The position numbers and the translations under genes are program-made. A DNA stretch of 64,000 nt from Acidobacteriota bacterium. Lineage in GTDB: Bacteria; Acidobacteriota; UBA6911; RPQK01; JAJDTT01. Below the pieces are notes generated by a model. That model did no database searches. It was not told the DNA's origin and saw nothing but the letters and a program-made list of their open reading frames with translations. Below are positions 3,860-20,046 of the stretch, one piece after another. Numbering within the stretch: position 1 is the stretch's first letter; every line of letters starts with the position of its first letter. The stretch covers positions 64,001 through 128,000 of the forward strand of contig OZ242374.1 of assembly GCA_965209055.1 (NCBI GenBank), read 5' to 3'.

Positions 3860-3973
3860 CAGTCCGTGGTGAAAGTCCCGCGAGCACCGAGACCGTTCCT
3901 GCGCCCGCCGGACAAGGCGCGATTCGGGTGCATACCGGGAGTATGTGCCCGAATCGCAACGCAGTCCGCCGGG
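3860..3973 (+). repeat. Left part of a split palindromic (MITE/ERIC-like or structured RNA) element, ending in the attL core
   Basis: 3860-3913 is the imperfect reverse complement of 19993-20046. Internal hairpin GCGATTCGGGTGCATAC-CGGGA-GTATGTGCCCGAATCGC at 3919-3957. Confidence 0.8.
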
Positions 3974-4022
3974 CTGTAGTTTGTGGGATGGACATAACGT
4001 CCAGATATGTCCAGTATTGTAC

Positions 4023-4136
4023 ATAAGTGTCTGTTTATCATTGACTTATCAGGTGTTCGGACGTTCTCCGGTGTCCCATAACGATCCGCTTCGTCCCCTT
4101 GCATCCACGATATTGTGGGGGTATAGTGGTGGGTAT
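4023..4136 (+). promoter_or_regulatory. Candidate att-associated accessory/arm sites upstream of the integrase
   Basis: TAAGT-N15-ACTTA dyad (4024-4048), mirrored near the right end by TAAGT-N15-GTTTA (19951-19975). Tandem GGGGGTAT / GTGGGTAT immediately before the integrase start, as commonly seen upstream of P4-like integrases. Confidence 0.45.
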
Positions 4137-5358
4137 GGCACTCGTGAAACGTCCCCCGAAACGCAAACCGCGCGGGCGGCATCCCCTCAACGCCCTGACA
4201 CCGGTCTTTGTCCGCAACGTGAATCAGGCCGGACGCTACTGCGACGGCCAGGGCCTCTATCTCGACGTCCGGCCCACGGGCAGCCGGGGTTGGATTCAAC
4301 GTCTCACCATCCGTGGCCGCCGAGCCGAGCTCGGACTCGGTGGATTCCCCCTCGTCTCGCTCAAGGAAGCGCGCGAGAAGGCGTTCGCCAACCGGAAGCT
4401 GGCCCGCGAGGGGGGCGACCCCCGGGCCGGGAAGCGGGAGTCCAAGTCGATGCCCACCTTCGCTGACGCCACCCGGACGGTCTGGAAGCAGTTGCGGCCG
4501 GGCTGGCGCTCCCCCCGGCATGCTCGGCTCTGGCTGGCGAGCCTGGAGCACCACGCCTTCCCTCGCATTGGTGAGATGCCGATTGCGGAGGTGACGAGCG
4601 CCGACGTGATCGGAATTCTCGCTCCGATCTGGCACGAGAAGGCCTCCACCGCCCGGAAGCTGCGCCAGCGCATCCGCGCGGTCCTGGAGTGGGCCGTGGC
4701 GATGGATCTTCGGCCCGACAACCCCTGTGACCGGATCGGCCCGGTGCTCGGTGCGCAGGGAAAGGTGGTGCGCCACATGCGGGCGTTGCCCCACCGCGAG
4801 GTGGCGGCCGCACTTGAGTCGGTGCAGGGGTCCAACGCGCGGCCGGTGTTGAAGCTGGCCTTCGAGTTCCTGGTGCTGACGGCGACACGCTCCGGCGAGG
4901 TCCGCAGGGCGGCTTGGACGGAGATCGACCGGGAGGAGGGGGTGTGGACCATCCCGGCCGCACGGACGAAAGGGAATCGGGAGCACCGGGTCCCGCTCAG
5001 TCGTCGTGCGTTGGAGATCCTCAAGGACGTGCGGTCGGTCGGTGGCGTTGGCCCATTCGTGTTTCCGAGCGTGCGCGGCAAGCCAGTCGGAAACACGGCG
5101 ATGGCGGAGCTGCTCCGGAGGTTGGGGATCGCGGCGGTACCGCACGGGTTCCGGTCGAGTTTCCGGGACTGGGCGGCGGAGGAGACGGATCATCCGCGCG
5201 AAGTGGCGGAGGCGGCGCTGGCGCACAAGGTGCGCAACCCGATCGAGGCCGCCTACCGGCGCACGGACCTGTTCGAACGCCGGCGCCGACTTATGGACAA
5301 CTGGGCGAACTATCTGGCTGGCGAGAGCCGGCAACCGGCATCCGGTCGGCTCCGTTGA
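4135..5358 (+). CDS. Tyrosine recombinase/integrase, P4-like with N-terminal arm-binding domain
   Basis: N-terminal DGQGLYL...LGLGGFPLVSLKEAR; catalytic residues intact: TATRSGE (R), RTK (K), HGFR (HxxR), LAH (H), AYRR (Y). Confidence 0.95.
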   Translation: MALVKRPPKRKPRGRHPLNALTPVFVRNVNQAGRYCDGQGLYLDVRPTGSRGWIQRLTIRGRRAELGLGGFPLVSLKEAREKAFANRKLAREGGDPRAGKRESKSMPTFADATRTVWKQLRPGWRSPRHARLWLASLEHHAFPRIGEMPIAEVTSADVIGILAPIWHEKASTARKLRQRIRAVLEWAVAMDLRPDNPCDRIGPVLGAQGKVVRHMRALPHREVAAALESVQGSNARPVLKLAFEFLVLTATRSGEVRRAAWTEIDREEGVWTIPAARTKGNREHRVPLSRRALEILKDVRSVGGVGPFVFPSVRGKPVGNTAMAELLRRLGIAAVPHGFRSSFRDWAAEETDHPREVAEAALAHKVRNPIEAAYRRTDLFERRRRLMDNWANYLAGESRQPASGRLR

Positions 5359-5599
5359 TCCGCCGTGCGTAGAGCGCCAGCTTGAAAGTCTGCGCGAAGC
5401 CATAGTCCGCCGATATGCCGCCGGAAACCCACTCAGGCGCAATCTTCGAGAACTCCCGAAAAAACAAGCCCGCCATTTGGCCTGGTTGGCTTGGTGAAAC
5501 CGGGCCAAGGGTTCGGGATAGGCCGTTGGACGTTGTCCTCTCCCATGCGGGGCATTCTCTCACGACAGACTGGAATTCTCCCTTCCCCATCTTCGCAGA

Positions 5600-5912
5600 G
5601 GCCTTCCCGCAGGGATCAATGAAGAAGTGAGCGACCCCCCCGCGCATGCCGCGCCGGTGTCCAACGGAGTGGAACACTGGCAGCGCTTGCGTGACGTGCG
5701 AGGCACGAAAACAGGGGGGTCGCTCACTTCTCCTCCCCGGACTCCCCGTCCGGGCGCTCCTCCTCCAGGAGGACGGGGACAAACCGAAGGGGCTCAACAA
5801 GATGCCGGAAAGGGAGCTTGTAACACTCGCCGCTCCGGGAGTGGAACACACCCCCCCATGTGTGTTTCACATCCTGGGACTTTGCCGGACAGGCCCACCG
5901 GAGGTGGAACAC
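5600..5912 (+). other. Structured non-coding element, copy 1 (candidate ori/oriT or ncRNA)
   Basis: Perfect 18-bp inverted repeat at 5623-5640 / 5714-5731; GTGGAACAC repeated at 5669, 5841 and 5904; homologous to 6733-6473 on the other strand. Confidence 0.6.
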
Positions 5913-6028
5913 GGACCGGGAGCGGTCCGCCACATTGCCGTCAATGGGACTTTCCGTGCTCTTCGCAGCCCGTGGATCCACGACGTCCACGGGGTCCACC
6001 CGGGACCGCGCGCGGCCCCTCAGGCGCT

Positions 6029-6420
6029 CTACAACCCTCCTCCGGTTTCCGCTGGAATCCGGACCGAGAGCCAGCCGCGGCCCCGGTCGATGCGGATGCG
6101 GTTTTGGGGGATAGGGGCGGTGGCCCGCTCCCGCCGGAGGTCGTCGCGGGCCACCGCGACCACTTGCACCGGGTGGTCTTGTGCGCACAGCGCGGCCCAG
6201 AGCCGGGGGTGCTCCACCCTCCACGAGAGCAACTCCGAGTCGGTGTCCCGGCCGGGATCGACATAGACGAAGGTCGCCCGGTCCTCCTCCAGGGCCAGGG
6301 GGAGCTTGCGGGGGAAGTACCGGCTCCGTCCCCGGGCGTGGCCGGCATAGTGGCGGCACTGGAACAGCCGCCGGGAAAGGCCCAGCGCCTCCAGCGCCTG
6401 CGACAGCTGCGTCACCTGCG
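6029..6420 (-). pseudogene. Internal fragment of a conserved mobile-element hypothetical protein
   Basis: ALEALGLSRRL...Y.G..GRSRYFPRKLPLALEEDRATFVYVDPG...HPRLWAAL resembles the middle of a larger protein recalled from acidobacterial integrative elements; N- and C-termini are absent. Confidence 0.5.
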
Positions 6421-6472
6421 GGCCGACAGGGTTCATGGAGGGGTGAAAGGGCTTCCCGGTGTCGATCCGGGA

Positions 6473-6733
6473 GTGTAAGTGAGACAACGGGGGCGACTTA
6501 CAACAGGGGAGCGAGTTCACTTACACACGCGATTTCCCCGAACTCTTTGTCGCTCATGCAGTTACGGCCACATTCCCGGCTTCGCCGCGCCCGCACGGGG
6601 AAATCGGAGGTGGACGGGAGCGACCCCCCCTTTTTCCTGCCCGGTGCGGGCGCGGGGGTGTTGTGCAACTTACATTTGCACAACACCCCCTGGGGGGGTC
6701 GCTCCCGTCTCATTGATCCCTAGCGGGAAGGCC
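6473..6733 (-). other. Structured non-coding element, copy 2 (candidate ori/oriT or ncRNA)
   Basis: Perfect inverted repeats at 6613-6630/6692-6709 (18 bp), 6654-6668/6676-6690 (15 bp), 6530-6540/6596-6606 (11 bp), 6585-6596/6644-6655 (12 bp) and 6473-6482/6517-6526 (10 bp); ACTTACA/TGTAAGT motif occurs 4 times. Confidence 0.65.
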
Positions 6734-6767
6734 ACAAAAGACACCCGTGCCGGGCAAGATGGGACGT

Positions 6768-7112
6768 ATGAGTGCCCCCGACATCCCCGAGAAACGCTTG
6801 GAGACCCTCAGGAAGTAGGCGGTGGAGAGGCTCCGCGACCGCCGCGCTTACCGCTGTCCGGACTGCGGCAATCGAAGCTTCCCGCGAGGCCGCGCTTCGG
6901 CCACCGTCATGAGGTTCGAGCGAGCCGGTGCCAAATGCCGGGAGTTCCAGGTCCGGCCGGGTGAGGGGTGCTACCCCTTCCTCGTCTCCGATCCGCCCTA
7001 CCGGACAAGCCCGCATTGTCTAACTTATCGTGCTCTGACCCACGCCCCTGCCCCCCCGGTTTCCAGCGGGGTCCACGGTCCAGAGACGTCAAAATCTTGC
7101 CCAGCCCCGTGA
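6768..7112 (+). pseudogene. Possible decayed small zinc-ribbon gene
   Basis: ATG 6768 MSAPDIPEKRLETLRK* continues in frame after the TAG as AVERLRDRRAYRCPDCGNRSF. Confidence 0.3.
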
Positions 7113-7249
7113 GTCTATTTGTATGGAAAACGAGGCAAGGATTCTATCCGTCAGGTCAGTAGCTCCTTCTACACTTCGGCCAGAAGAGGATCCATTGCAT
7201 CATTGAATACTGTCGAAGGCCAACCTTCTGCCGGGAGGAACCGTTCCGG

Positions 7250-10200
7250 ATGTCAGTACCCACCCTGAAGATCGCACATCGTTGCCGATTGCGATCCGCG
7301 ACCTCACTACTAACCGTAACTTTGGGCTTGGTTCTGCTGGCCGTACCGCAGAAAGCCATGGCTCAAATCGTCCCCGTCTGCGACCGAACTCCGGAAGTGC
7401 GTGACGCCATCGTGGAGAAGATTCCAGATGTTTCCGACTGCAGCGAGGTGACTGAGGCGCATCTGGCCGTGATCACAGGTTTCCTCGATCTGGCAGGTCC
7501 GCACGAGTTTTGGGGTGTTCCCAGCGGCCGCCCGAATCCCATTCCAGAGTTGAAAGCCGGGGATTTCTCCGGGCTGTCTTCGTTGGAAGGACTCCTGTTG
7601 CAGTACAATGACCTGACGACGCTGCCCCCAGGTTTCTTCCACGGGCTGTCCTCCCTGAAAACGCTCAACCTGGAGAACAACCGCCTGACCACGCTGTCGA
7701 CCGGGGTCTTTGCCGGGTTGTCCTCCCTGAGAACGCTCGCACTGAGTGGCAATCCACTGACGACCGTGCCGGCCGGGATCTTCTACGGACTCACCGCGCT
7801 GGACAAACTCAGGCTGTCCCTGCATTACGACGAATTGACGCCTTTCCACGGCGGGATCTTCTCCGGACTCACCGTGTTGAATACGCTCTACCTGACCCTA
7901 TCGGGGTTCAATGATCCGGTTCCCCTTTCCGGGGATCTTTTCTACGGACTCACCGCGCTGAAATCGCTCAATCTCTACAGTCTCAATCGGAGCACTCTGC
8001 CCGATGACTTTTTCTCCGAGTTGTCCACGCTGAAAGGGCTCAAACTGCTGGGCAACCGACTGACCACGCTGCCAGCCGGAATCTTTGCGGGACTGTCCTC
8101 GCTGGAATCGCTCGACCTGAATTTCAATCCACTGACCAGCCTGCCGCCCGGGGTCTTTTCTGGATTGTCCTTGCTGAAAACGCTCAAACTGGTTGGCAAC
8201 GAGTTGAGCACACTGCCGGTGGGGGTCTTCGCCGGGTTGCCCTCGCTGGAGACGCTCGAGATGGATGAAAACCGTCTGGCCACTCTGCCGCCCGGGGTCT
8301 TTTCTGGATTGTCCTCGCTGAAAACACTCAATCTGGGTGTCAACGACCTGACCACGCTGCCGGTCGGGGTCTTCGCCGGGCTACCCTCGCTACAATGGCT
8401 GTACCTGTATCGCAACGAACTGACCGCACTGCCGGTGGGAATTTTCTCCGGACTGTCTTCCCTTAAGTTGCTCAATCTGCGTGGCAACGACCTGATCCAG
8501 GTGTCGATTGGCCTCTTCTCCGGATTGTCTTCGCTGCAAACGCTCGATCTGGCGTACAATCGCCTGACCGCGCTACCGGACGGCATCTTTTTTGGGCTGT
8601 CCTCGCTACAATTGCTGTACCTGGATCGCAACGAATTGACCACGTTGCCGGGCGCGGTCTTCTCGGGACTGTCTTCTTTGGAGACGCTCAGTCTGCGTGG
8701 CAACGAACTGACCACGCTACCGGACCGGGTTTTCTCCGGGTTGACCTCGCTACAAACGCTCGTTCTGACAACCAATCGCTTGACCGCGCTGCCGGACGGG
8801 ATCTTTACCGGGCTGCCCTCGCTGAAGAGGCTCACGGTGTCTCAAAACGAGCGTCTACTGACCACGATGATTTCGCTGGAATTCGCTGGAGAAGGCCGGT
8901 TCAGAGCCATGGCGCAAACCGGAGCCCTCTTCGATATCGAGCTTCCGATCACCGTTGTCAACGGTGTCATCGACGGCGGTTCAAGCCAGCAGATCACCAT
9001 CCCCAGGGGCAGCGTGTATAGCGCCACGTTCACCGTTTCCCGCAATCCCGGCCCGGCCTCGACCGTCTTCGTGGATATCGGCGAGTTGCCCGAGATGCCG
9101 AGTTCCATTGATACGGACCTCACTCTGGTCAAGTCTCCCCACTTGCCGCTGATCGTTCTGGAGGAACCAAATCTGCACTTTGCTCATTTCGCCAATGGGG
9201 AATCCATCACGTCCGAGTTGGTGTTGGTGAACGTGGGCGACGAGCCGATCCGTCCGGTTATCTCCTTTCTGGATCGCGGCGGGAATCTCCTGTCCGGCGG
9301 ATGGCTGGTGGAGATGAGGGAAGGCCTGGAGGTCCAAGAGGACGGCTCGGTGAGGGTTCAGACGAGCGTGGAACCCCTGGGAGAGCTCACAATCTCGACC
9401 CATCCTCGAAGGGTGATGGTGTCCGGATCGGTGCGCGTGGTCTCGGACGGTCCCATCGGCGGGGTCCTCCGCTATGTCAATCCGGGCATCGGCGTGGCCG
9501 GGGTGGGAGCGAGTCCACGCGTCCGGGACGCCATCTTCCCGGCTCGAAACCAGGCGGGAGGGATCCGCACGGCGGTCGCGATCCGTAACCGAGGAGCGGG
9601 GTGGATGAGGGTGCGGTGCCAATTGATGCAAGCGGGCGCCGTGCTGGATGAGACGGAGATCTCTCTGAAAGGCGGCGGGCAGGCGGCCCGGTTTCTCGAC
9701 GAATTGTTCACCCAGACCGATACGTCCGACTTCGTTGGGTCGGTGCGTTGTACGGCGCCGCGCAGCCGGCTTTTCACGGGAGTGGCCGTTGAAATGGATA
9801 CCGAGAATCGGATCTTCACGACCCTGCCGATGGTGCCGGTGGAGCCCTTGGCGGACGGGAGCGGGGAAGGGACTTTGGTCTTCGCGCATTTCGGGAACGG
9901 ATCGTCCATTCGATCCGAGTTGGTGTTGGTGAACGTGGGGACCGATCCGATCCGGCCCTCCGTCTTCTTCTATGATCGGCAGGGCGCCCAAATCGACGCG
10001 GAATCGGTGGTGGAAGTGATGGGAGACCTGGAGGTCCGGGAGGACGGAGCACTCGGCGTTGGGACGGAAATGGGGGCGCTGAGCGAGCTCACGATCTCGA
10101 CCCATAGGCAAGGGGAACTGGTGACGGGATCGGTGCGGGTGGAGTCTGACGGTCCCATGGGCGGGGTTCTGCGCTTTGACGTCCCAAGCGTGGGGGTGGC

Positions 10201-10552
10201 CGGGATCGGCGCCTCCCCGCCCGTCACGGCCGCGATCTTCCCGGCCCGGCGCCACGAAAACGGGATCAACACCGGAGCCGCGATCCACAATCTGGAAGCG
10301 GAAGCCATGACGTTGACCTGCGCACTGATGCAGAACGGTCGCATGCTGGCTGAGACAGAGATCGACCTGGACGCCGGCGGTCAGGTCGCCCGTTTCATCA
10401 ACGAACTCTTCAAGGACGCTGATACCTTCAACTTCGCCGGCTCGGTCCACTGCACCGCGCCCCCGGGCGGAGCCTTCACGGGAGTGGCCCTGGAGATGGA
10501 TGCGGACAACCGGATCTTCACCACATTGCCGATGGTCCCGGTGCACCGATGA
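7250..10552 (+). CDS. Secreted leucine-rich-repeat protein A (about 18 LRRs, Cys N-cap, two C-terminal beta-rich modules)
   Basis: Signal peptide ending KAMA; cap VCDRTPEVRDAIV...DC; 24-aa repeats LTTLPxGxFxGLSSLxxLxLxxNx; duplicated module FAHF(A/G)NG..SELVLVNVG...FTTLPMVPV. Confidence 0.95.
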   Translation: MSVPTLKIAHRCRLRSATSLLTVTLGLVLLAVPQKAMAQIVPVCDRTPEVRDAIVEKIPDVSDCSEVTEAHLAVITGFLDLAGPHEFWGVPSGRPNPIPELKAGDFSGLSSLEGLLLQYNDLTTLPPGFFHGLSSLKTLNLENNRLTTLSTGVFAGLSSLRTLALSGNPLTTVPAGIFYGLTALDKLRLSLHYDELTPFHGGIFSGLTVLNTLYLTLSGFNDPVPLSGDLFYGLTALKSLNLYSLNRSTLPDDFFSELSTLKGLKLLGNRLTTLPAGIFAGLSSLESLDLNFNPLTSLPPGVFSGLSLLKTLKLVGNELSTLPVGVFAGLPSLETLEMDENRLATLPPGVFSGLSSLKTLNLGVNDLTTLPVGVFAGLPSLQWLYLYRNELTALPVGIFSGLSSLKLLNLRGNDLIQVSIGLFSGLSSLQTLDLAYNRLTALPDGIFFGLSSLQLLYLDRNELTTLPGAVFSGLSSLETLSLRGNELTTLPDRVFSGLTSLQTLVLTTNRLTALPDGIFTGLPSLKRLTVSQNERLLTTMISLEFAGEGRFRAMAQTGALFDIELPITVVNGVIDGGSSQQITIPRGSVYSATFTVSRNPGPASTVFVDIGELPEMPSSIDTDLTLVKSPHLPLIVLEEPNLHFAHFANGESITSELVLVNVGDEPIRPVISFLDRGGNLLSGGWLVEMREGLEVQEDGSVRVQTSVEPLGELTISTHPRRVMVSGSVRVVSDGPIGGVLRYVNPGIGVAGVGASPRVRDAIFPARNQAGGIRTAVAIRNRGAGWMRVRCQLMQAGAVLDETEISLKGGGQAARFLDELFTQTDTSDFVGSVRCTAPRSRLFTGVAVEMDTENRIFTTLPMVPVEPLADGSGEGTLVFAHFGNGSSIRSELVLVNVGTDPIRPSVFFYDRQGAQIDAESVVEVMGDLEVREDGALGVGTEMGALSELTISTHRQGELVTGSVRVESDGPMGGVLRFDVPSVGVAGIGASPPVTAAIFPARRHENGINTGAAIHNLEAEAMTLTCALMQNGRMLAETEIDLDAGGQVARFINELFKDADTFNFAGSVHCTAPPGGAFTGVALEMDADNRIFTTLPMVPVHR

Positions 10553-10568
10553 CCTGAGGAGATTAGAC

Positions 10569-11357
10569 ATGAGGCGAATACCCGCTATTTCATTGCTGAT
10601 TCTGATTTCCATGGTTCCAGTCTTCTCAGAGGGAGACGGAGACCGGGAGTACATCGTTCCCATTTATTTCCAGGAACGGCCTTTGTATACGACTTTCGAC
10701 ATCATCGAGGTATCGGGTCGGCAGGTCGATGTCCATATTGAAGAGTATAGATCCGACGGAATCGAAACCGTTGGGAAATCCCATGTTGACGGGGTCAGGG
10801 AGAATGACTGGTGGGATGTCATCCCCTCGTTTTTCATATCCGGACTCCAGTTAGACAATGGCTGGGCGCGCATCACCTGTCCGGCAAATCGGGAACTTCA
10901 CATTGTTTCGACCATTCACACGGAGGACGATCCACAGCGTTCGATTCATTTCGGAGGAGTGGTTCCATCGAAATCATTTCGTCTGATGGCATGGTACTTC
11001 GAGGATAACCCCCGTGAGGACTGGGAGGGGAAGAAATTGGCCCCTGGTCAGACTGCTTTGGTTATCGTAAACCCTACGGAGGAAACCCAAACCGTGACCG
11101 TGACCTTATATTTGCGCGATCTGGAGGACCCGCTGAGAGAGATGGTCCAGATCGAACCTCTGCACTCACTGAGCCGGTTTCTATCCGAGCTGGTGCCCGT
11201 GGATGAGCACTTGGATCACAGGGACAAGGAATTGGGACGTGTGGGATACATCAGAGGATTGGTGGAAGTGTCAGGGGAAACGGTAATCGCGGTAGGTGCC
11301 CTGGACTTTTTCCGCGAAAGCGGTCGATTCAGGAGTGTTCCGGTAAGCTATGAATAA
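10569..11357 (+). CDS. Small secreted protein, single-module family member 1
   Basis: Signal peptide MRRIPAISLLILISMVPVFS; GWA, TALVIVNP, LSRFLSELV and IAVGAL...VPV motifs shared with 11886 and 18679; AGGAG RBS. Confidence 0.85.
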   Translation: MRRIPAISLLILISMVPVFSEGDGDREYIVPIYFQERPLYTTFDIIEVSGRQVDVHIEEYRSDGIETVGKSHVDGVRENDWWDVIPSFFISGLQLDNGWARITCPANRELHIVSTIHTEDDPQRSIHFGGVVPSKSFRLMAWYFEDNPREDWEGKKLAPGQTALVIVNPTEETQTVTVTLYLRDLEDPLREMVQIEPLHSLSRFLSELVPVDEHLDHRDKELGRVGYIRGLVEVSGETVIAVGALDFFRESGRFRSVPVSYE

Positions 11358-11493
11358 GGCAATCGGCTGTAATTCTCTGCCAGATCTCTAGCTGACATAA
11401 TTTATGCGGTCGCAGATCCCCCATCACCTCTGGAGAGAGGCAATCTGGAAATCCCCAAGAATATAGTCCCCAAATCCAAATTGGGACACTACC

Positions 11494-11658
11494 CGGTTCC
11501 TGTCGGAACTCGTCGATCTGGAAGGTCTGGAGAGAAATTCTCGGGGCGGGACCCAGGGCTTGGTTCGAATCGAGGGGCAGGAGGAGACCGCCGTGGCCGC
11601 AGTCGGGTACTCACGGGCGACGAATTGGTTTCATACGGTGCCGGTGGCGGCTGAGTAG
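11494..11658 (+). pseudogene. 3' fragment of a further single-module family paralog
   Basis: Hand translation: RFLSELVDLEGLERNSRGGTQGLVRIEGQEETAVAAVGYSRATNWFHTVPVAAE*, which aligns with the C-termini of its neighbours; no 5' part. Confidence 0.75.
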
Positions 11659-11885
11659 TGGAACTCGACGGAGTGCTGGTCTGGGTTATATCCTCGATGC
11701 CCCTCTGGGAGGGATCAGATGGCTACGCACACCCCAGGCCCCCGGGTTCTCTGAGACTGCCAATCCCTGGAGGAGCGGCTCGTTGATCTGTTGAGTCTGC
11801 GTCCCGTCCTCGGGTTCGGCCAAAAGGCACTCTCCCGCATCATTAATTGCTGACTAAAGTTCTATTCTCTGCTGCACCCAAAGCC

Positions 11886-12689
11886 ATGGATTCATACAAG
11901 CTACACCTCGTCATTCTTGTTGTCCTGCTCTCGGTTGTCGGCCCCATCCGGGGGGCCGAACGGGAACTCCTATTCCCGATCGTGACGCACGTCGGGAACT
12001 ACAACTCCAGGATGGTCGTGATGAATCCATCCAAGTACAGGGTGAGCTACCACATCAAAGGTCTCAGCCCAGGTGCAGGGGGAAGTGGATCAAGCGGCAC
12101 TCTAGAGCCCGATAGCATGAGTGTCTTCGAACCTGGCCCTTTTCTCAGGCGCGCGGATTTTAAAGGTGGTTGGGGATTCGTAAGATACAGTTTCTTGGGA
12201 GTCCCCGACGCCGACAAGGAGCGAGCGAAACGCCTTCGCCTCTTGGCGTGGACGGAACTTCGGCTTTTAGATAAAGAGCATCCTCTAGTTCCGGTAATTG
12301 CAATAGCGAGCATCCCCGCCGTTGAGGCCGCGTTGGAATTCAGAGTGCCTGGTGTATTCCGAAGAGATGAAGAAGCGGCCATAGCGATCCTCAATCCGTC
12401 CGAGGAGCCGGTCCAAATCGAAGTCACTCTGCACCGTTACCGAAGGCCCGTCCGTAACCCGCCGTACGTCCAGGTCAAGAACAGGCTTACTGTGCCTCCG
12501 ATGGAGCGCCTGAGCCGATTTCTGGGGGAGTTGATGACGGAAGGCAAGGACGACCCACTGGAGGTGCCCCCGCCTCCCAACGGCAGCACCCTGCACATTC
12601 GCGGCAGTGCACCTATTGCTGTCGCAGCGCTGCTCTACAACCACGGGACCGGGGCGTATGGGAATCTTCCGGTCGTGAGGGTGGACTAG
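11886..12689 (+). CDS. Small secreted protein, single-module family member 2
   Basis: Signal peptide MDSYKLHLVILVVLLSVVGPIRG; GWG, AAIAILNP, RLSRFLGEL and IAVAAL...LPV motifs. Confidence 0.85.
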   Translation: MDSYKLHLVILVVLLSVVGPIRGAERELLFPIVTHVGNYNSRMVVMNPSKYRVSYHIKGLSPGAGGSGSSGTLEPDSMSVFEPGPFLRRADFKGGWGFVRYSFLGVPDADKERAKRLRLLAWTELRLLDKEHPLVPVIAIASIPAVEAALEFRVPGVFRRDEEAAIAILNPSEEPVQIEVTLHRYRRPVRNPPYVQVKNRLTVPPMERLSRFLGELMTEGKDDPLEVPPPPNGSTLHIRGSAPIAVAALLYNHGTGAYGNLPVVRVD

Positions 12690-12803
12690 GTGATCGCCCG
12701 CATAGCCCGGGTCGTTGCATAGATCTTCCGCAGTGCAGACTCCGAGTCCCGAAGCGGTGCGAGAACCGCAGGAGAGCCGCAGACCCTGACCATCGAGACG
12801 ATA

Positions 12804-13607
12804 GTGCATGAGATCCTGTCCCGTTTGAGAGCTGGTCAGTACGTTCTGGATTTAGGGTGCGGAACGGGTAGTTTCAACCGTCGAAACTACCCGTGCACCA
12901 CAATCCGCGTGGATCTGTCTCGTGAAGGAGATGTATCGGTCCAGGCCAACGCCGCTCAGTTGCCCTTCAGGGATAGTGTGTTCGACGCTGTGATTTGCAA
13001 CCATAGTCTGGAGCATTTTGAGAACCTTGATGGAGCACTTCTAGAACTGAAGCGAACAGCAAATCAGAACGCAGCCGTTTTCGTAGCCGTTCCGGATGCC
13101 AACACTCTCACGGATCGAGTATATCGGTGGCTGGCACGGGGCGGAGGACACGTCAACGGCTGGCGCTCGGAAAGGCATTTGGCCCGGCAGATCGAATCAC
13201 AGATCCAACTGAATCATCAGGGTACCCGGCTGCTTCTCACATCTCTGTCGTTCCTGAATCGGAAGAACAGGATCGCTCCGCCTCCCAAGAGGCTGTTCCT
13301 GTTGGCCGGAGGGAGTGAGAGTGCCTTGATCCTTTTGAACTACGTTTTACGTGTGATCGATCGGCTCCTGGGGACTCGACTAGCCGTTTATGGTTGGGCA
13401 ATGTATTTCGGTCACGTTCCGGGACCGATCGACACGAGACCTTGGACGAATGTCTGTGTTCGCTGTGGGTCTGGCCATAGGGCAGACTCGCTCATCAAGG
13501 CCGGCCGGATCCAGCACCGAAGCCTGGTCTGGTGGATCTGGACGTGTCCAATCTGTGAGACGAAAAATCTATTCACTGACGACGCCTACGGTGTTCAGTA
13601 CAACTAA
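12804..13607 (+). CDS. Class I SAM-dependent methyltransferase with a C-terminal Cys4 motif
   Basis: VLDLGCGTG and LPFRDSVFDAVICNHSLEH; C-terminal CVRC...CPIC. Confidence 0.85.
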   Translation: MHEILSRLRAGQYVLDLGCGTGSFNRRNYPCTTIRVDLSREGDVSVQANAAQLPFRDSVFDAVICNHSLEHFENLDGALLELKRTANQNAAVFVAVPDANTLTDRVYRWLARGGGHVNGWRSERHLARQIESQIQLNHQGTRLLLTSLSFLNRKNRIAPPPKRLFLLAGGSESALILLNYVLRVIDRLLGTRLAVYGWAMYFGHVPGPIDTRPWTNVCVRCGSGHRADSLIKAGRIQHRSLVWWIWTCPICETKNLFTDDAYGVQYN

Positions 13608-13701
13608 CCGATGCGTCCGTGGGAGGATCGCCTGAAACCCTCGCCAAAGATCCCAGATGGGAAATAGACAGCCTTCCTTCTGCCTGGAGGAACCATTCCG
13701 G

Positions 13702-16700
13702 ATGTCAGTACACATTCTGAAGATTGAACCGCTTCCCCGATTGCGATCCACGACCTCGGTGCTAGCGGTAACTTTGGGCTTGGTTCTGCTGGCCGTACCG
13801 GAGAAAGCCACGGCGCAGATCGTCCCCGTCTGTGACCGGACTCCGGAAGTGCGCGACGCAATCGTGGAGAAGGTTCCGGACGTTAGCGATTGCGGTGATG
13901 TGACGGAGGCACATCTGGCTGAGATTGAGGGTGACCTCAATCTGGCAGGTCCGTACGATGTATGGGGTATTCCCTCCGGCGATCTCCCGAATCCCATTCT
14001 AGAGTTAAAGGCGGGGGATTTTAGCGGACTGTCCTCGTTGGAAGGACTTGGGTTACATGCCAACAAACTGACTACCCTTCCGGCGGGCCTCTTCCACGGG
14101 CTTTCTTCCCTGGAAACGCTCGCGCTGGGCCGCAATCCACTGACCTCCCTGCCGGCCGGGATCTTCTCGGGACTCATCTCGCTCCAATCGCTCGGGCTGT
14201 CCCTGCACTACAACGATATGGTTCCCCTGTCCGGCGACCTTTTCTCGGGACTCACCTCGCTCCAATGGCTCACTCTGTACATCGGGGGTCCTCTGCCAGA
14301 TGACCTCTTATTCGGATTGCCCACGCTGAAATGGCTCAAATTGAGAGTCAGCGACGGGACGACGCTGCCGGCTGGGATTTTCGCGGGACTGTCGTTGCTG
14401 GAGTCGCTCAACCTGGCCTTCAACCGATTGACCGAGCTACCGGCCGGGAACTTCTCCGGGTTGTCGTCGTTGAAATGGCTCGATCTGCGCGGCAATCGAT
14501 TAACGACACTGCCGGCCGGGATTTTCGCGGAACTGTCCACGCTGGAAGGGCTCGATTTGACAGACAATCGACTGACGACGCTGCCGGCCGGGATCTTCGG
14601 TGAGCTGTCCTCTCTGAAAGAGCTCAACCTGGGCGATAACGACCTGACCACACTCCCGGTCGGCGTCTTCGCCGGGTTGTCCTCGCTGGAAGATCTCTCT
14701 CTGGTTAGAAACAGCTTGACGACGTTGCCGACCGGCGTCTTTTCCGAGCTGTCCTCGCTGGAAGATCTCTCTCTGGGTGGCAACGGCCTGACGACACTGC
14801 CGGTCGGTGTCTTCTCCGGGTTGTCCTCGCTGGAACGGCTCTATCTTGGTGGCAACGGCCTGACGACACTGCCGGTCGGCGTCTTCGCCGGGTTGTCTTC
14901 GCTGGAAGGGCTCTCTCTGGGTGGCAACCGTCTGACGCCGTTGCCGATCGGGGTCTTCGCCGGGCTGTCCTCGCTGGAATGGCTCTCTCTGGATGGCAAC
15001 GGCCTGACGACGCTGCCGGCCGGGGCCTTCTCTGGACTGTCGTCCTTGAAACAGCTCTATCTGGAGAACAACCATCTGACGACGTTACCAGCTGGGGTCT
15101 TCTATGAGTTGTCCTCGCTGGAACGGCTCTTGCTGAGAAACAACGACCTGAGGACGCTGCCGGTCGGGGTCTTCGCCGGTTTGTCCTCACTGCGGGTGCT
15201 CCACCTGCGTTGGAACGAGCTGAGGTCGCTTCCAGTCGGGACCTTCGCTGGGCTGTCCTCGCTGGAAGAGCTCTACCTGAGAAATAACGACCTGAGGACG
15301 CTGCCGGCCGGAGTCTTCTCCGGGCTGTCCTCGCTGAAAGTGCTCAGCCTGAGCGACAACCGACTGACGACGCTGCCGATCGGAGTCTTCTCCGGGTTGT
15401 CCTCGCTGGAAGAGCTCTTTCTGGTCAGAAACAGATTAACGACGCTTCCGGCCGGGGTCTTCGCGGGGCTGTCCTCTTTGAAAACGCTTGGGTTGTATGA
15501 CAATCACCTGACCGCACTGCCGGAGGGGATCTTTTCCGGGCTGTCCGCGTTGGAATCGCTTTGGTTGTCTACCAATCGCTTGACCGCACTGCCGGAGGGG
15601 ATCTTTTCCGGGTTGCCGTCGCTACAAAAGCTTTCTCTGTCTGACAACTGGAACCAACTGACCACAATGATTTCGCTGGAATTCGCTGGGGAAGGCCGGT
15701 TCAGAGCCCGGGCCGACACCGGGGCCCTCTTTGAGATCGTGTTGCCGATCAATGTTGTCAACGGCGTCATCGACGGCGGATCGAGCCACATCAATATCCC
15801 CAGGGGCAGCGTGTATAGCGCCATGTTCACAGTTTCCCGCGACCCCGACCCGACGTCTGCCGTCTTCGTGGATATCGGCGAGTTGCCGGAGATGCCGGAT
15901 TCCGTTGATACGGACCTCACTCTGGTCAAATCGCCCCACTTGCCGCTGAACGTTCTGGAGGCGCCGAATCTGCACTTTGCCCATTTCGCCAATGGGGAGT
16001 CCATCACGTCCGAATTGGTGTTGGTGAACGTGGGCGACGAGCCGATCCGTCCGGTCATCTCCTTCCTGGACCGCGGAGGGAATCTCCTGTCCGGCGGATG
16101 GCTGGTCGAGATGAGGGAGGATCTGGAGGTTCGGGAGGACGGCTCGCTGAGGGTTCGGACGAGCATCGAACCGCTGGGGGAGCGCACGATCTCGACCCAT
16201 CCTCGAAGGACGATTGTGTCCGGATCGGTGCGGGTGGAGTCCGATGGTCCTCTCGGCGGGGTCCTCCGCTATGTCAATCCGGATATCGGCGTGGCCGGGG
16301 TGGGAGCGAGTCCACGCGTCCGGGACGCCATCTTCCCGGCTCGAAACCAGGCGGGAGGGATCCGCACAGCGCTCGCGATCCGCAGCCGGGCAGACGAATG
16401 GATGAGGGTGCGGTGCCAGTTGCTGCAAGCGGGCACTGTGCTGGAAGAGACGCAGATCTCCCTGACGCGCGACGGGCAAGCGGCCCGGTTTATCGATGAA
16501 TTGTTCACCCAGACCGACACGTCCGACTTCGTTGGTTCGGTGCGCTGTACGGCGCCGCGCGGCCAGCTTTTCACGGGAGTGGCCGTGGAATTGGATACAG
16601 AGAATCGGATCTTTACCACCCTGCCGATGGTGCCGGTGGAGCCCTTGGCGGACGGAAGCGAGGAAGGGACTCTGGTCTTCGCGCATTTCGGGAACGGATC

Positions 16701-17349
16701 GTCCATTCGATCCGAGTTGGTGTTGGTGAACGTGGGTGCCGATCCCCTACGGCCCGCCGTCTACTTTTACGATCAGGAGGGCGCCCAAATTGACGCGGAA
16801 TCGGTCGTGGAAGTGACGGGAGATCTGGAGGTTCGAGAGGACGGAGCACTGAGCGTCGGGACGGAAATGGTGGCGCTGAGCCAGCTCACGATCTCCACCC
16901 ACGGGCAAGGGGATTTGGTGACGGGATCGGTGCGAGTGGAGTCTGACGGACCCGTTGGCGGGGTCCTGCGCTTTGACATCCCAAGCGTGGGGGTGGCCGG
17001 GATTGGTGCCTCCCTGCCCGTTACGGCCGCGATGTTCCCGGCCCGGCGGCAGGACAACGGGATCAACACCGGAGCTGCGATCCGAAACCTCGAGTCGGAA
17101 GCCGTGACGTTGACCTGCGCACTCATGCAGAACGGTCGCATTCTGGCTGAGACGGAGATCGACCTGGACGCCGGCGGTCAGGTCGCCCGTTTCATCGACG
17201 AACTCTTCAAGGACGCCGATACTTCCGACTTCACCGGCTCAGTCCTCTGCACTGCGCTCCCGGGCGGATCCTTCACTGGAGTGGCCCTGGAGATGGATGC
17301 GGACAACCGGATCTTCACCACATTGCCCATGGTCCCGGTGCTCCGATGA
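13702..17349 (+). CDS. Secreted leucine-rich-repeat protein B (about 23 LRRs), paralog of protein A
   Basis: Same leader, cap and two C-terminal modules as 7250-10552; start chosen by alignment to A (ORF-track start is 13657). Confidence 0.95.
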   Translation: MSVHILKIEPLPRLRSTTSVLAVTLGLVLLAVPEKATAQIVPVCDRTPEVRDAIVEKVPDVSDCGDVTEAHLAEIEGDLNLAGPYDVWGIPSGDLPNPILELKAGDFSGLSSLEGLGLHANKLTTLPAGLFHGLSSLETLALGRNPLTSLPAGIFSGLISLQSLGLSLHYNDMVPLSGDLFSGLTSLQWLTLYIGGPLPDDLLFGLPTLKWLKLRVSDGTTLPAGIFAGLSLLESLNLAFNRLTELPAGNFSGLSSLKWLDLRGNRLTTLPAGIFAELSTLEGLDLTDNRLTTLPAGIFGELSSLKELNLGDNDLTTLPVGVFAGLSSLEDLSLVRNSLTTLPTGVFSELSSLEDLSLGGNGLTTLPVGVFSGLSSLERLYLGGNGLTTLPVGVFAGLSSLEGLSLGGNRLTPLPIGVFAGLSSLEWLSLDGNGLTTLPAGAFSGLSSLKQLYLENNHLTTLPAGVFYELSSLERLLLRNNDLRTLPVGVFAGLSSLRVLHLRWNELRSLPVGTFAGLSSLEELYLRNNDLRTLPAGVFSGLSSLKVLSLSDNRLTTLPIGVFSGLSSLEELFLVRNRLTTLPAGVFAGLSSLKTLGLYDNHLTALPEGIFSGLSALESLWLSTNRLTALPEGIFSGLPSLQKLSLSDNWNQLTTMISLEFAGEGRFRARADTGALFEIVLPINVVNGVIDGGSSHINIPRGSVYSAMFTVSRDPDPTSAVFVDIGELPEMPDSVDTDLTLVKSPHLPLNVLEAPNLHFAHFANGESITSELVLVNVGDEPIRPVISFLDRGGNLLSGGWLVEMREDLEVREDGSLRVRTSIEPLGERTISTHPRRTIVSGSVRVESDGPLGGVLRYVNPDIGVAGVGASPRVRDAIFPARNQAGGIRTALAIRSRADEWMRVRCQLLQAGTVLEETQISLTRDGQAARFIDELFTQTDTSDFVGSVRCTAPRGQLFTGVAVELDTENRIFTTLPMVPVEPLADGSEEGTLVFAHFGNGSSIRSELVLVNVGADPLRPAVYFYDQEGAQIDAESVVEVTGDLEVREDGALSVGTEMVALSQLTISTHGQGDLVTGSVRVESDGPVGGVLRFDIPSVGVAGIGASLPVTAAMFPARRQDNGINTGAAIRNLESEAVTLTCALMQNGRILAETEIDLDAGGQVARFIDELFKDADTSDFTGSVLCTALPGGSFTGVALEMDADNRIFTTLPMVPVLR

Positions 17350-17483
17350 CCTGACGAGAATAGCTAGTGACGGCGGATCTCTGGACACGGGGCATCTGGA
17401 ATATCAATGCGAGGAAAAGTCTGCGCGCTCGTCGTGGAGTTTAAGGAATGATCAACCCAGGATTAGACCATGAGCAAGACTAA

Positions 17484-18673
17484 GGAAGGTCTGATTAAGT
17501 CGAGTCAGCGTTCTGCACGATAATCCCTTCATCATCACTGCGTGGGGGGAAAGACGATGTCGCAACGGACGTTCGCAGATCTGGAATACGACGCCAAGAA
17601 GCGGGTGACCCGTCGGGAGAAGTTTCTGGTCCGCATGGACGGGTTGATTCCGTGGGAGCAGTTGGAAGCCCGGATTGAGCCGTTTTACCCGAAAGCGGGA
17701 CGGGGCCGGCGTCCCTACCCGCTCTCGGCGATGCTGCGGATCCACTGCGTGCAGTTGTTTTACAACCTGAGCGATCCGGGGATGGAGGATCTGCTTTACG
17801 AGGTGGAGTCGGTGCGGCGGTTCGTGGGTCTGAAGCTCACAGGGCCGCTGCCGGACGAGACGACGATTCTGAAGTTCCGTCATCGGCTGGAGGAGCATGG
17901 TCTGGGGGAGGCGCTGTTCGAGGAGATCGGTTCTCACCTGCAGCGTCAAGGCCTGCGGCTGAGCCGGGGGACGATCGTGGACGCGAGTATCCTGGCGGCG
18001 CCTTCCTCGACGAAAAACAAGGATCGGGCGCGGGATCCGGAGATGCACCAGACGAAAAAGGGAAAACAGTGGTATTTCGGAATGAAGGCCCACCTGGGGG
18101 TGGACGCCCAGACGGGGGTGGCGCACACGGTGGTGACGGCTCCGGCCAACGAGCATGACGTGACGCGGGCCTCCGAATTGCTGCACGGCTCGGAGTCGCA
18201 AGTTTGGGGGGATTCCGGATACCAGGGAGTGCAGAAGCGGTCGGAGAATCGAGATCGGCCGGTGGATTGGCAGGTGATGATGAAGCCCGGGAAGCGTTGG
18301 CAGCTGTCGCCGGAGAGTGAGGCGGCGTTGGCCGAGCGGCGTAAGGCATCGGTACGGGCGAAGGCAGAACATGTGTTCGGGTACCTGAAACGGCATTTCG
18401 GCTACGCCAAGGTGCGCTACCGCGGGCTGGCGAAAAACACCCAACGGATCTATCTGCTGGTGGGATTCGCCAATCTGATGATCGCCGAGCGCTCCGGTGT
18501 GACCGCCTGATCGGAATGCGGCACGGCTGTGTTTGAGGCTGGGGAAACCGTCTCGCAATCGCTTGGTCAAGACCAATTCAGGGTTGCAAATCCCAGGTTA
18601 GAGCGTCTGGATCCGAAAAAGGGAGGGATACAAGGTCTGTTTCGCCCCATATGAGGACTTAATCAGACCTTCC
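17484..18673 (+). mobile_element. IS5-family insertion sequence, 1190 bp
   Basis: Perfect 18-bp terminal inverted repeats GGAAGGTCTGATTAAGTC (17484-17501, 18656-18673); CTAA target duplication at 17480-17483 and 18674-18677. Confidence 0.95.
17557..18510 (+). CDS. IS5-family DDE transposase
   Basis: TRREKFL..MD.LIPW, PDETTILKFR, GTIVDA, RDPEMHQTKKGKQWYFGMKAH, GDSGY and VRAKAEHVF motifs. Confidence 0.95.
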   Translation: MSQRTFADLEYDAKKRVTRREKFLVRMDGLIPWEQLEARIEPFYPKAGRGRRPYPLSAMLRIHCVQLFYNLSDPGMEDLLYEVESVRRFVGLKLTGPLPDETTILKFRHRLEEHGLGEALFEEIGSHLQRQGLRLSRGTIVDASILAAPSSTKNKDRARDPEMHQTKKGKQWYFGMKAHLGVDAQTGVAHTVVTAPANEHDVTRASELLHGSESQVWGDSGYQGVQKRSENRDRPVDWQVMMKPGKRWQLSPESEAALAERRKASVRAKAEHVFGYLKRHFGYAKVRYRGLAKNTQRIYLLVGFANLMIAERSGVTA

Positions 18674-18678
18674 CTAAG

Positions 18679-19449
18679 TTGTCCCTCGCCGTTCTGCTGC
18701 TTCTGCCCCTGCTGCTTCTGGCCGGGCATTCACAGATCCCGGTCATTACTACGGACACTCCGCTCAAGACTCTGATCGTCCCTATCTACGCTCAGCACTT
18801 TTGGTACGAGACGACGATCTCAGTCATAGAGGCTTCTGGTCTGCCCACGACTTTCTGGGTCCGTGAATATACTGAGGCCGGAGACTTTGTCCACGGGGAA
18901 GGAGAGGAGCGTTTCTTGGCCGAGGACGCTTCTGAGGGCATAAGTTTCCATCCGCTTTTCTTGCACACGACGATTAAGAACGGATGGGCGTTGCTGTTGC
19001 ACCCGTCGAATCGCAAGCTCCATGCCGTCAGTACAGTGTGGAAGTACAATGATGACACGATTGAGTCCAGAGTATCCTCCGCGGCGGTAGAGCCTGCGGC
19101 CGCATTCCGATTCGGTGGATTTCGAGTAGAGGATCGGGAGACGGCGGTCTCGATCATCAACCCAACTGGTCACGACCAAAGGGTGACGATCCAGATGTAC
19201 GCCATGCGCGGGAAGCCTTTGCGGAGGCCGATCGAAGCGAGCTGGAAGATTGGTCCGATGGACCGGCTTAGTCGGTTTATCTCGGAATTGCTTCCCTTGG
19301 AGGAGTCCGTCGGCAACCCGCGCGATGTTGGTGGGATAATCCGAGTTGCCGGGGAATCGAGGATTGCGGTGGGTGCTCTGGGGTTCTCACACGGGACGGG
19401 GAAGATTTGGCATGTCCCTGTCGTTGCGGAACCCCAGAGCCATAACTAA
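18679..19449 (+). CDS. Small secreted protein, single-module family member 3; original 5' end (ATG 17470) separated by IS5
   Basis: Removing the IS gives ATG AGC AAG ACT AAG TTG TCC CTC (MSKTKLSLAVLLLL) in frame; GWA, ETAVSIINP, RLSRFISEL and IAVGAL...VPV motifs. Confidence 0.85.
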   Translation: MSLAVLLLLPLLLLAGHSQIPVITTDTPLKTLIVPIYAQHFWYETTISVIEASGLPTTFWVREYTEAGDFVHGEGEERFLAEDASEGISFHPLFLHTTIKNGWALLLHPSNRKLHAVSTVWKYNDDTIESRVSSAAVEPAAAFRFGGFRVEDRETAVSIINPTGHDQRVTIQMYAMRGKPLRRPIEASWKIGPMDRLSRFISELLPLEESVGNPRDVGGIIRVAGESRIAVGALGFSHGTGKIWHVPVVAEPQSHN

Positions 19450-19991
19450 GCCTCCTTCCTTAGTAAATCCAGTAATTCGTCGCTATCAACGTCGCGTCAA
19501 CCCGGCCTTCGTGGGCAGGGCCGTAACCGATCTCCAGGCTGGACCCGCAACTGTCTCTGGAAGGGGCCAAGACCCTTCCGTTGAATCACTCGGTAGCCAA
19601 GATCCGACTATTCTGACGCCTGTGTCCCTCCTCGGAAATCGATGAGATGGGTAAGGGCTTCGCCTGATTAGGAATGAGACTTGACTTGGCCAGGGTGTTG
19701 TCGAGTCGAGCCGACTTGGCGAGGGTGCCCGGCCATAAGCCCAGTCCCGGACGAACCGGCGCGGCAGGAAAGCCGATTGTTGGCGGCCGTGAAAAAGTGC
19801 AGTAAAGTGGCCTTCGAAAATGTCAGGCTCCGGTGGCGTGAGCGGGTGGTAATCCGGGACGGGCATGTCCGTTCACGGCCACGAAGAGCCGAGGACATCC
19901 ATTTCTTTCCGGTGGAAAGAATGGGGGGAACAACGTCTCCAAAACATACGTAAGTCGTTTAAGGTAAATGGTTTACAGAAATTATGGAAAT

Positions 19992-20046
19992 AGTCCGCCG
20001 GGATGCAGGGACGGTCGAATGCCGTGACGACTTTTACCACGGGCTG
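19992..20046 (+). repeat. attR core plus the right part of the split palindromic element
   Basis: AGTCCGCCGGG followed by sequence ending GACTTTTACCACGGGCTG, complementary to CAGTCCGTGGTGAAAGTC at 3860-3877. Confidence 0.8.

Follow-up and report, generated by a model that had tools for sequence, protein, structure and literature searches.

A 16-kb island with a P4-like integrase splits a multicopy miniature inverted-repeat element in an Acidobacteriota genome

The subject of this analysis is I1, a 16-kb island in a stretch of 64,000 nucleotides from an Acidobacteriota bacterium (contig OZ242374.1, positions 64,001 to 128,000; referred to here as the window). I1 is very probably an integrative island that was placed by its own P4/CP4-like tyrosine integrase, through site-specific recombination, into one copy of a miniature transposable element with inverted repeats (MITE). 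It occupies positions 3974-19991 of the window, to which all coordinates refer unless marked “genome”; the genome of this organism is a single metagenome-derived contig of 6.08 Mb that was scored as 7.4% contaminated.

The split element at the ends of the island

The two ends of I1, from the left to the right host gene, contain the following features.

1994-3859, plus strand: left host gene, a thiamine-pyrophosphate (TPP) enzyme (Pfam TPP_enzyme_N/M/C)
3860-3973, plus strand: left 114 nt of the split MITE; these hold the core and the central hairpin as well as the inverted outer end CAGTCCGTGGTGAAAGTC
3963-3973, plus strand: core of the left junction (attL), AGTCCGCCGGG, with a putative 7-bp overlap CCGCCGG at 3966-3972
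3974-4134, plus strand: integrase-proximal arm (P' arm), with blocks invariant across nine islands of three kinds
4135-5358, plus strand: intact P4/CP4-like tyrosine integrase of 407 amino acids (Pfam)
19830-19991, plus strand: distal arm (P arm), noncoding, including TAAGT-N15-GTTTA at 19951-19975 (alignment of nine islands)
19992-20046, plus strand: core of the right junction (attR, 19992-20002), then the right 44 nt of the MITE with its outer inverted end ...ACCACGGGCTG
20047-21348, minus strand: right host gene, a PD40 (TolB-like beta-propeller) protein (Pfam PD40)

The 11-bp core AGTCCGCCGGG is duplicated exactly and in direct orientation at 3963-3973 and 19992-20002. These are its only copies in the window, where 0.11 would be expected, and two or more copies were reached in 1 of 100 shuffles. 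Beyond the core, the next six bases are identical at four positions (CTGTAG versus ATGCAG), extending the match to the 17 bp with two mismatches that an earlier reading of the letters alone (the sequence-only reading) had reported. That reading had also proposed a hairpin of ∼158 nt rebuilt across the 16 kb, and this was reproduced: splicing 3860-3973 to 20003-20046 yields a 158-nt sequence whose predicted structure is a single long hairpin with a minimum free energy of -112.9 kcal/mol (RNA parameters), the outer arms agreeing without gaps at 30 of 54 positions and pairing with small bulges. An intact copy from elsewhere in the genome (L044), folded as DNA, forms the same hairpin at -57.3 kcal/mol (z = -7.98), and none of 200 shuffles was equally stable. 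The G+C content from ∼7,000 to 20,000, across the cargo, is 0.52 to 0.62, compared with 0.64 to 0.67 in the flanks.

On both sides, the host genes end within the flanks of the repeat: the TAG stop of the TPP-enzyme gene lies inside the left copy of a 4-bp target duplication (CTAG, 3856-3859) and the stop of the PD40 gene inside the right copy (CTAA, 20047-20050). An insertion in a MITE between two convergent stops disturbs no gene. A tRNA, tmRNA, or noncoding RNA as the target was considered and rejected, given that ARAGORN predicted no tRNA or tmRNA gene in the window and that the Rfam scan of the window gave no match.

The repeat split by I1 is dispersed throughout the genome. A blastn search of the 6.08 Mb with the left 114 nt yielded 15 matches of ≥90% identity, itself included, and there are at least 16 uninterrupted full-length copies, 70 to 99% identical, besides further halves; uninterrupted copies with the core hold it once. 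The inverted 18-mers CAGTCCGTGGTGAAAGTC and GACTTTTACCACGGGCTG form the ends of the copies, and next to them lie direct repeats of 4 bp (e.g., CTAA, TTAA, TTAG, TCAA, and CTAG). The 4-bp flanks are identical in 7 of 10 pairs of short inverted ends and in 7 of the 16 full copies, all seven falling among the 10 copies of ≥87% identity. At the position of the core, two subvariants can be told apart, a core-bearing one reading ...GCAGTCCGCCGGGATGCAGG (five empty copies with ≤1 mismatch to the 21-nt site) and a coreless one reading ...GCCGTCCGCGCCTGTGCAGG (nine copies, ≤2 mismatches). As for an autonomous partner sharing these inverted ends, none was found; three longer pairs of ends (1.4 to 1.8 kb) enclose ordinary-looking open reading frames (ORFs) and no transposase, as judged from reading the translations only. 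The ends of the insertion sequence (IS) of the IS5 family that lies within the island differ from those of the MITE.

The same element is abundant in 8 of 8 relatives from the genus, with at least 14 to 15 matches per relative among the matches listed. The expectation that a multicopy repeat would offer many landing sites is thus borne out by the 16 full copies and additional halves in this genome and by this abundance in all relatives. At the I1 locus itself, the TPP-enzyme and PD40 genes abut in all eight relatives without the hairpin, and a single copy of the 4-mer is present at the empty sites. The closest relative reads ...GATCGTCTAGCCGCCC... where the present genome has CTAG-(MITE and island)-CTAA, and a 26-kb contig from an independent sponge-metagenome run (X1) joins 3859 straight to 20051. 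The sequence-only reading had held that it would be wrong if relatives lacking the island did not show the TPP gene, the hairpin, and the TolB-like gene adjacent. The adjacency of the two genes was found in 8 of 8 relatives and the hairpin between them in none, which formally touches that statement. A recent insertion of the MITE accounts for the missing hairpin: of four intact MITE loci, three are likewise absent from all relatives examined. In this control, in which four core-bearing loci were compared in five relatives, three of the loci lacked the MITE in every relative holding the locus (5 of 5, 5 of 5, and 4 of 4), and at the fourth it was present in one of five. Insertions of the MITE are therefore mostly specific to this lineage.

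Given its inverted ends, the 4-bp duplications, the many copies, and the precise empty sites, the 158-nt hairpin is a MITE (noncoding, dispersed, and polymorphic) and not a noncoding RNA. The earlier proposal of a structured repeat or noncoding RNA as the bacterial attachment site (attB) consequently stands for the repeat, which four sister islands and islands in two relatives also split at the same core, and falls for the noncoding RNA, given the mobility of the MITE and the lack of Rfam matches.

One could instead suppose that the repeat derives from the island, with the 158-nt elements being solo attachment-site scars or internal-deletion derivatives and not an independent target. Recombination between the two 11-bp cores would indeed leave precisely 158 nt, and the nine coreless copies could be a decayed form. 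Against this, the element has its own 4-bp duplications (7 of 10 pairs) and precise empty sites; it is plentiful in 8 of 8 relatives, including two (G002 and G005) in which the 5' region of the integrase had no match at an E value of 1e-30; and the outer arms of the MITE share nothing with the arms of the island. We regard a derivation from the island as very improbable.

The integrase and its sister islands

The integrase ORF starts 162 bp past the left core, where the sequence-only reading had placed an intact P4-like integrase (∼160 bp), and has three Pfam domains, all above cut-offs: Arm-DNA-bind_3 (PF13356, 34-114), Phage_int_M (PF22022, 121-213), and Phage_integrase (PF00589, 230-386), the last covering positions 3-165 of the 172 in the catalytic model. 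In a PDB sequence comparison, the N-terminal arm domain corresponded to the “CP4-like integrase” 3jtz and the central domain to 2khv. Reading the translation by eye, we found TATRSGE, TKGNREHRVPL, HGFRSSFRDW, LAHKV, and AAYRR, which, going by the consensus, would contain the catalytic R, K, H-x-x-R, H/W, and Y.

A tblastn search of the genome with this integrase retrieved four paralogues at 94 to 96% identity, five at 82 to 87%, and six at 61 to 65%, in addition to seven loci at ∼30%. All four paralogues of 94 to 96% adjoin a half-MITE, as had been asked of close homologues, with the other half 9 to 12 kb away and both junctions at the same core. They define four sister islands.

I2: genome 3838520-3848526, inverted in its MITE
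I3: genome 4956911-4968849
I4: genome 2474461-2485454
I5: genome 571457-580347

Two remnants without an integrase split further MITE copies (genome 4556130-4560882 and 5258829-5273362). In I2, the integrase end meets the right half of the MITE and the distal arm meets the left half, while the split point is unchanged. The only sequence common to the I2 junctions and the site is CCGGCGG, which points to a 7-bp near-palindromic overlap, CCG(C/G)CGG. The same arrangement is found in relatives: an island of ∼26 kb splits the MITE in forward orientation in G004 (attL ...GCAGTCCGCCGGG|ATTCGTTG; attR ...CAGAAAC|AGTCCGCCGGGATGCAGGG), and an island of ∼6 kb lies inverted in the MITE in G007. Two named records of the genome collection (L072 and L073) show the same two junctions as G004 and G007 but are possibly the same assemblies and were not counted as independent. 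The outer ends and the duplications of the occupied MITEs are intact. At least five MITE sites in the genome are filled, and the five copies with ≤1 mismatch to the 21-nt site are empty.

The arms of the islands are conserved as well. In the P' arm, this applies to a tandem GTCCAG (3999-4004 and 4009-4014), a palindromic TAAGT-N15-ACTTA (4024-4048), and a block ending in TATAGT (4122-4127); the P arm is strongly conserved in the alignment of nine islands. Both arms, including the GTCCAG tandem spaced 10 bp apart and the TAAGT palindromes, are shared between the 94 to 96% and the 82 to 87% groups. The pattern TAAGT-N15-RYTTA, which the sequence-only reading had seen as TAAGT-N15-(A/G)(C/T)TTA inside both ends, occurs in the window at 4024-4048, 19951-19975, and 6476-6500, giving five strand matches against 0.05 expected, a number reached in 0 of 100 shuffles. 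It is plausible that the GTCCAG repeats and the TAAGT palindromes are arm-type sites or sites for accessory proteins. A noncoding block of ∼150 nt in the distal arm (GTCCGTTCACGGCCACGAAGGGCCAA...GGTGGAAAGAATGGGGGGAA) is kept even across integrase subgroups (19830-19991 and eight other islands). It exceeds what arm-type sites need and may be a small RNA or a regulatory region. A σ70 promoter for the integrase (TTGCAT-17-TATAGT, 4099-4127) was considered and rejected because a consensus scan gave none in 3800-4250; the conservation of the block remains.

According to the mechanism that we propose, the MITE, a nonautonomous element with duplications of the CTAG, TTAA, or TCAA kind, would have landed first on the overlapping stops of the two convergent genes. 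Heterobivalent tyrosine recombination would then have joined the attachment site of the island (attP, composed of P arm, core, and P' arm) to the core in the right arm of the MITE, with GCAGTCCGCCGGGATGC as the putative attB and strand exchange presumably within the near-palindromic overlap CCG(C/G)CGG, where the exact cleavage positions would lie. Such an overlap would explain islands in both orientations at one point, and a MITE that is multicopy and intergenic would provide several neutral landing sites, so that islands with different cargo can coexist.

An alternative route to the same picture is composite transposition, in which an island entered a MITE once or twice and the MITE's transposase, working in trans at the outer ends, then moved the unit of half-MITE, island, and half-MITE to new sites, leaving the integrase without a part in most present locations. 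The loci of I1, I2, and I4 in relatives are clean, having a single copy of the 4-bp target and lacking the MITE; run X1 has a 26-kb contig in which 3859 is joined to 20051; and the outer ends and duplications of the occupied MITEs are intact, all of which such a unit would produce. The intact MITEs, however, are equally strain specific (absent everywhere at three of four loci and present in one of five relatives at the fourth), so that a missing MITE-only stage is expected under either model and this argument loses its force. Further observations disfavor composite transposition. The islands lie in both orientations within the MITE, here and in relatives. Divergence is lower in the noncoding MITE halves than in the integrase genes they enclose: around the five islands, the halves are 94.7 to 98.8% identical and the integrase genes 92.4 to 95.8%, and between I1 and I2 there are 2 differences in 169 nt of MITE halves compared with 69 in 1,257 nt of the integrase gene. 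I1 and I5 are different islands at the same MITE site with near-identical flanks, no autonomous element with the inverted ends of the MITE was found, and sister integrase groups act alike on repeats that are not MITE-bounded units. Taken together, we consider composite transposition improbable as the source of most of these locations.

The case of I1 and I5 is complicated by a large near-duplicate. Genome positions 1-172,945 are an inverted near-duplicate of 642,277-484,586 (∼160 kb, 97 to 99.5% identical) that holds the flanks of both islands; it takes in the whole window and extends, in genome terms, as far as ∼109,000 in window positions. In both copies, the MITE occupies the same 4-bp site (CTAG), and the islands differ in size (16.2 kb for I1 versus 8.9 kb for I5) and cargo, with integrase DNA that is 94.2% identical. 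The near-duplicate may be a true duplication within one genome, or it may represent two coassembled strain haplotypes. Short-read depth, among the contigs listed, is 6 to 11 for I1-unique contigs and 21 to 40 for a flank contig that shows 11 differences relative to the window, which hints at two strains. Under either reading, two different islands occupy a single fixed MITE site.

The near-duplicate and the contamination score of 7.4% also lend some substance to the suspicion that the architecture is due to chance or to an assembly error spanning a repeat, in a genome derived from metagenomic data, as does the finding that short-read contigs end within the MITE at the left junction. The right junction, in contrast, is spanned by contigs from two runs (X19 and X22; 18648-20021) with 0 differences, the same architecture recurs at five loci here and in two other assemblies, and the count of the core is far above chance. 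Such an artifact is therefore highly improbable.

Several observations count against a placement of I1 by its own integrase. At the loci corresponding to I1, I2, and I4, a MITE-only stage was found in no relative, and in these comparisons the MITE and the island together look like one insertion with one duplication. The I3 locus in G007 seemed to offer such a MITE-only site and was rejected, since the MITE there is ∼45 bp away with another duplication (ATAT) and thus an independent insertion. Between I1 and I5, the left MITE halves show 5 differences in 114 positions, more than the divergence of the flanks (∼1%) predicts; this excess indicates that exchange beyond simple excision and integration took place, and homologous exchange with other MITE copies probably also occurs. 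The “five islands in one cell” may in part be two strains, given the metagenome-derived contig and its near-duplicate. The G at the center of the junctions in inverted islands, which had been a candidate proof of a variant attP, was dropped because this base is dictated by the target strand and does not prove that attP differs. No Pfam family of an excisionase (Xis/AlpA) was detected at an E value of 0.05 in 10 ORFs, including small ORFs at both ends. Finally, neither an excised circle nor a restored MITE at I1 was seen in public-run data, which were used as assembled Logan contigs.

The contigs do contain a joint from 3962 to 19992, of which the shorter side spans 19 to 23 nt and the depth greatly exceeds that of the flanks; given this short side and depth, it comes from other intact MITE copies and not from excision. 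A joint from 19924 back to 5607 was rejected as a circle of I1, since it has the kind of junction seen in the second integrase subgroup. When viral contigs were searched for un-integrated attP with the integrase as the query, 0 relatives were obtained, and in a metagenome scan that gave 49 loci, the 6 closest that were examined are integrated or unrelated upstream, with no free form. The integrase may still be active in the present day.

Target repeats of the wider clade and island cargo

The preference of P4-type integrases for tRNA and tmRNA genes is seen in this genome only among the paralogues of ∼30% identity, of which five of seven lie beside tRNA-Ala, tRNA-Phe, tmRNA, tRNA-Ile, or tRNA-Leu genes. 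The sequence-only reading had named consistent tRNA linkage of integrase homologues as a refutation, and none of the closer ones was tRNA linked: no tRNA gene lies within 1.5 kb of any of the 16 clade integrases in this genome (>60% identity), nor adjacent to any of 42 close homologues in other genomes.

The two other groups of the clade recombine at repeats of their own. In the 82 to 87% group, recombination is at CCGC(A/T)AGG, with attL reading ...GGCCTTCCCGCAGGG|CTTCC... and attR ...TATAGAAAC|AGTCCGCAGGGATCAATGA...GGGAGCGACCCCCCC. The reconstructed target is a palindromic repeat, GGCCTTCCCGC(N)AGGGAT..GGGAGCGACCCCCCC and then a G/C hairpin, that has 54 matches in the genome with a loose pattern and is frequently found immediately upstream of an opposite-strand start codon (reverse complement: GGAAGG, ∼6 nt, ATG). 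At genome 3143500-3165140, an integrase of this group is followed by two attR-type junctions in succession (3152666 and 3165140), which suggests tandem islands at one site. In the 61 to 65% group (integrases at genome 185825, 470000, 818041, 1064739, 2675718, and 2970999; islands of 2.4 to 16 kb), recombination is at GGGGACGGCA within the hairpin GGGGGGACGGCAGTCCCCCC, the split being GGGGGGACGGCA|GTCCCCCC, and both junctions were found for five of the six islands. This hairpin comes after clusters of a 24-mer resembling repetitive extragenic palindromic (REP) sequences, GAGCGGCGACTTTCCTGTCGCCGA, which has 121 copies at ≤4 mismatches, often in tandem.

Outside this genome, integrases of 74 to 89% identity (L072 to L113) were retrieved from metagenome-assembled genomes (MAGs) of at least five phyla, mostly long-read assemblies, with titles naming Acidobacteriota, Longimicrobiales and other Gemmatimonadota, Candidatus Versatilivoraceae, Latescibacterota, Gammaproteobacteria, and Aminicenantes. 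Such identity across phyla argues for a recent horizontal spread of the island family. Among the 42 closest loci, 24 have a junction of the type TTCCCG-N(1-2)-RGG, 2 have a half-MITE like that of I1, and 16 are of other types (4 of these being truncated matches). The runs holding the present stretch are almost all labeled as sponge metagenomes.

A broader reading of these data, which we hold to be evenly balanced between right and wrong, is that a clade of P4-like integrases found across phyla in sponges has left tRNA genes for multicopy intergenic palindromes (a MITE, a palindrome associated with leaders, and a REP-like hairpin). The subgroups of the clade would retarget through small changes around a GTCCGC-type core, the near-palindromic overlap would permit either direction, and each genome would offer tens of neutral pads for defense and leucine-rich-repeat (LRR) islands. 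By spreading, the MITE would in this case create attB sites and link two types of mobile DNA. In a bolder version, the integrase would read an extruded hairpin and not duplex DNA.

Between its arms, I1 carries the following cargo and nested elements.

5600-6733, strand not assigned: module of 1.1 kb bounded by 42-nt inverted repeats at 5600-5641 and 6692-6733
6029-6520, minus strand: conserved ORF of 163 amino acids inside the 1.1-kb module, with a coding-like G+C pattern (GC3 0.87)
7250-10552, plus strand: LRR protein of 1,100 amino acids (Pfam LRR_8, E value 4e-100)
12804-13607, plus strand: S-adenosylmethionine-dependent methyltransferase (Pfam Methyltransf_23/11)
13657-17349, plus strand: second LRR protein, of 1,230 amino acids (Pfam LRR_8, E value 3e-152)
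17481-18676, plus strand: nested IS5-family insertion sequence of 1.2 kb, with 21-nt inverted ends (inverted repeat I7, 95% complementary)

The 42-nt repeats of the module are copies of the second palindromic repeat family, the attB of the 82 to 87% integrases, and the module is common to many islands, tRNA- and tmRNA-linked ones among them. Homologues of its ORF at 6029-6520 are all unnamed or hypothetical, those with a named source all coming from Acidobacteria MAGs; this ORF may be a recombination-directionality or regulatory gene. The two neighbors of the methyltransferase (10500-11357 and 11847-12689) gave no Pfam family, and three cargo ORFs in all are without a family. Both LRR proteins have a 72-nt (24-residue) LRR period and a C-terminal region of two ∼702-nt repeats, and a copy of the second LRR gene, 92.7% identical, lies at genome 4512211-4515970 in another island-like region. 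The IS5-family transposase (17542-18510; Pfam DDE_Tnp_1 and DUF772) belongs to an element with 14 further copies in the genome at 97 to 100% identity and others at ∼93%.

The LRR cargo anticipated by the sequence-only reading is thus present in I1, whereas the sister islands carry restriction-modification and other defense-type genes in its place. A complete type I restriction-modification system accompanies an AAA_13 protein in I3; I4 has a type ISP-like methylase together with a kinase-tetratricopeptide-repeat (TPR) protein, I2 has DUF4357 and T5orf172 proteins, and I5 has a PD-(D/E)XK nuclease. No phage structural or conjugation genes were recognized in the cargo of the islands.

Relation to known systems and significance

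In enzyme and anatomy, I1 is of the P4/CP4 type, and what differs is the class of target. Like P4/CP4-57 islands, it combines an integrase of arm-binding, SAM-like core-binding, and catalytic domains, located by attL, with a short duplicated core and variable cargo. In those islands, attB is provided by a tRNA or tmRNA gene, at its 3' end, or by a unique conserved gene, whereas here the site is in a multicopy MITE of which several copies are occupied, in both orientations.

Other mobile elements share single traits with I1. Integron integrases, such as that acting on the Vibrio VCR, are tyrosine recombinases that work on imperfect palindromes in many copies and are not known to have a P4-type arm domain. 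The integrase of I1 has this domain, the arms of the island are long and conserved, the targets are dispersed and not arrayed, and each island brings its own integrase. Filamentous prophages of Neisseria (Nf/MDA) use dRS3 repeats as sites, and their integration is ascribed to a Piv/IS110-like transposase. Both they and I1 are larger elements at multicopy short repeats, with I1 having a P4-like tyrosine integrase and no phage genes found. REP-targeting insertion sequences are 1 to 2 kb in size and encode DDE or DEDD transposases. Such elements (IS1397 and ISKpn1, and members of the IS110 family, e.g., ISPpu9) are reported to have the REP sequence or the bacterial interspersed mosaic element (BIME), an abundant intergenic palindrome, as their specific target (PMC1525189, PMC12288879). 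The likeness lies in the harmless palindromic repeat as a target; the difference is that the islands here are of 9 to 26 kb (16 kb for I1) and carry cargo, a tyrosine integrase, and attP arms, with a MITE as the target. The 61 to 65% sister subgroup is nearer to these insertion sequences, as its target is a REP-associated hairpin. For dusA-specific integrases, a whole clade with an unusual, non-tRNA attB has been described (PMC4482086). dusA, however, is a single-copy gene, while here three subgroups use three families of multicopy repeats. Our search of the literature for a MITE or REP sequence serving as attB of a tyrosine integrase, for such islands in sponge symbionts, and for mobile elements in sponge long-read data found no description, which is not proof of absence; one candidate source (PMC3718332) is unrelated.

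Pipelines that check tRNA or unique genes and mask repeats would miss a clade with a MITE or REP-like attB. If our reading is true, a genome could hold many related islands at once, insertion would be free of cost to the host, and landing sites would multiply as the MITE spreads. A compact integrase with a short core, both orientations, and a repeat as its target could also be a multisite integration tool for uncultured lineages. Relatives with the same repeat would have the same attB, which may help explain the integrases of 74 to 89% identity in Acidobacteriota, Gemmatimonadota, Latescibacterota, and other sponge-associated MAGs. LRR proteins, type I restriction-modification systems, type ISP-like methylases, and kinase-TPR proteins are gene classes enriched in sponge symbionts, and the islands are a candidate vehicle for the convergence of sponge symbionts on these classes.

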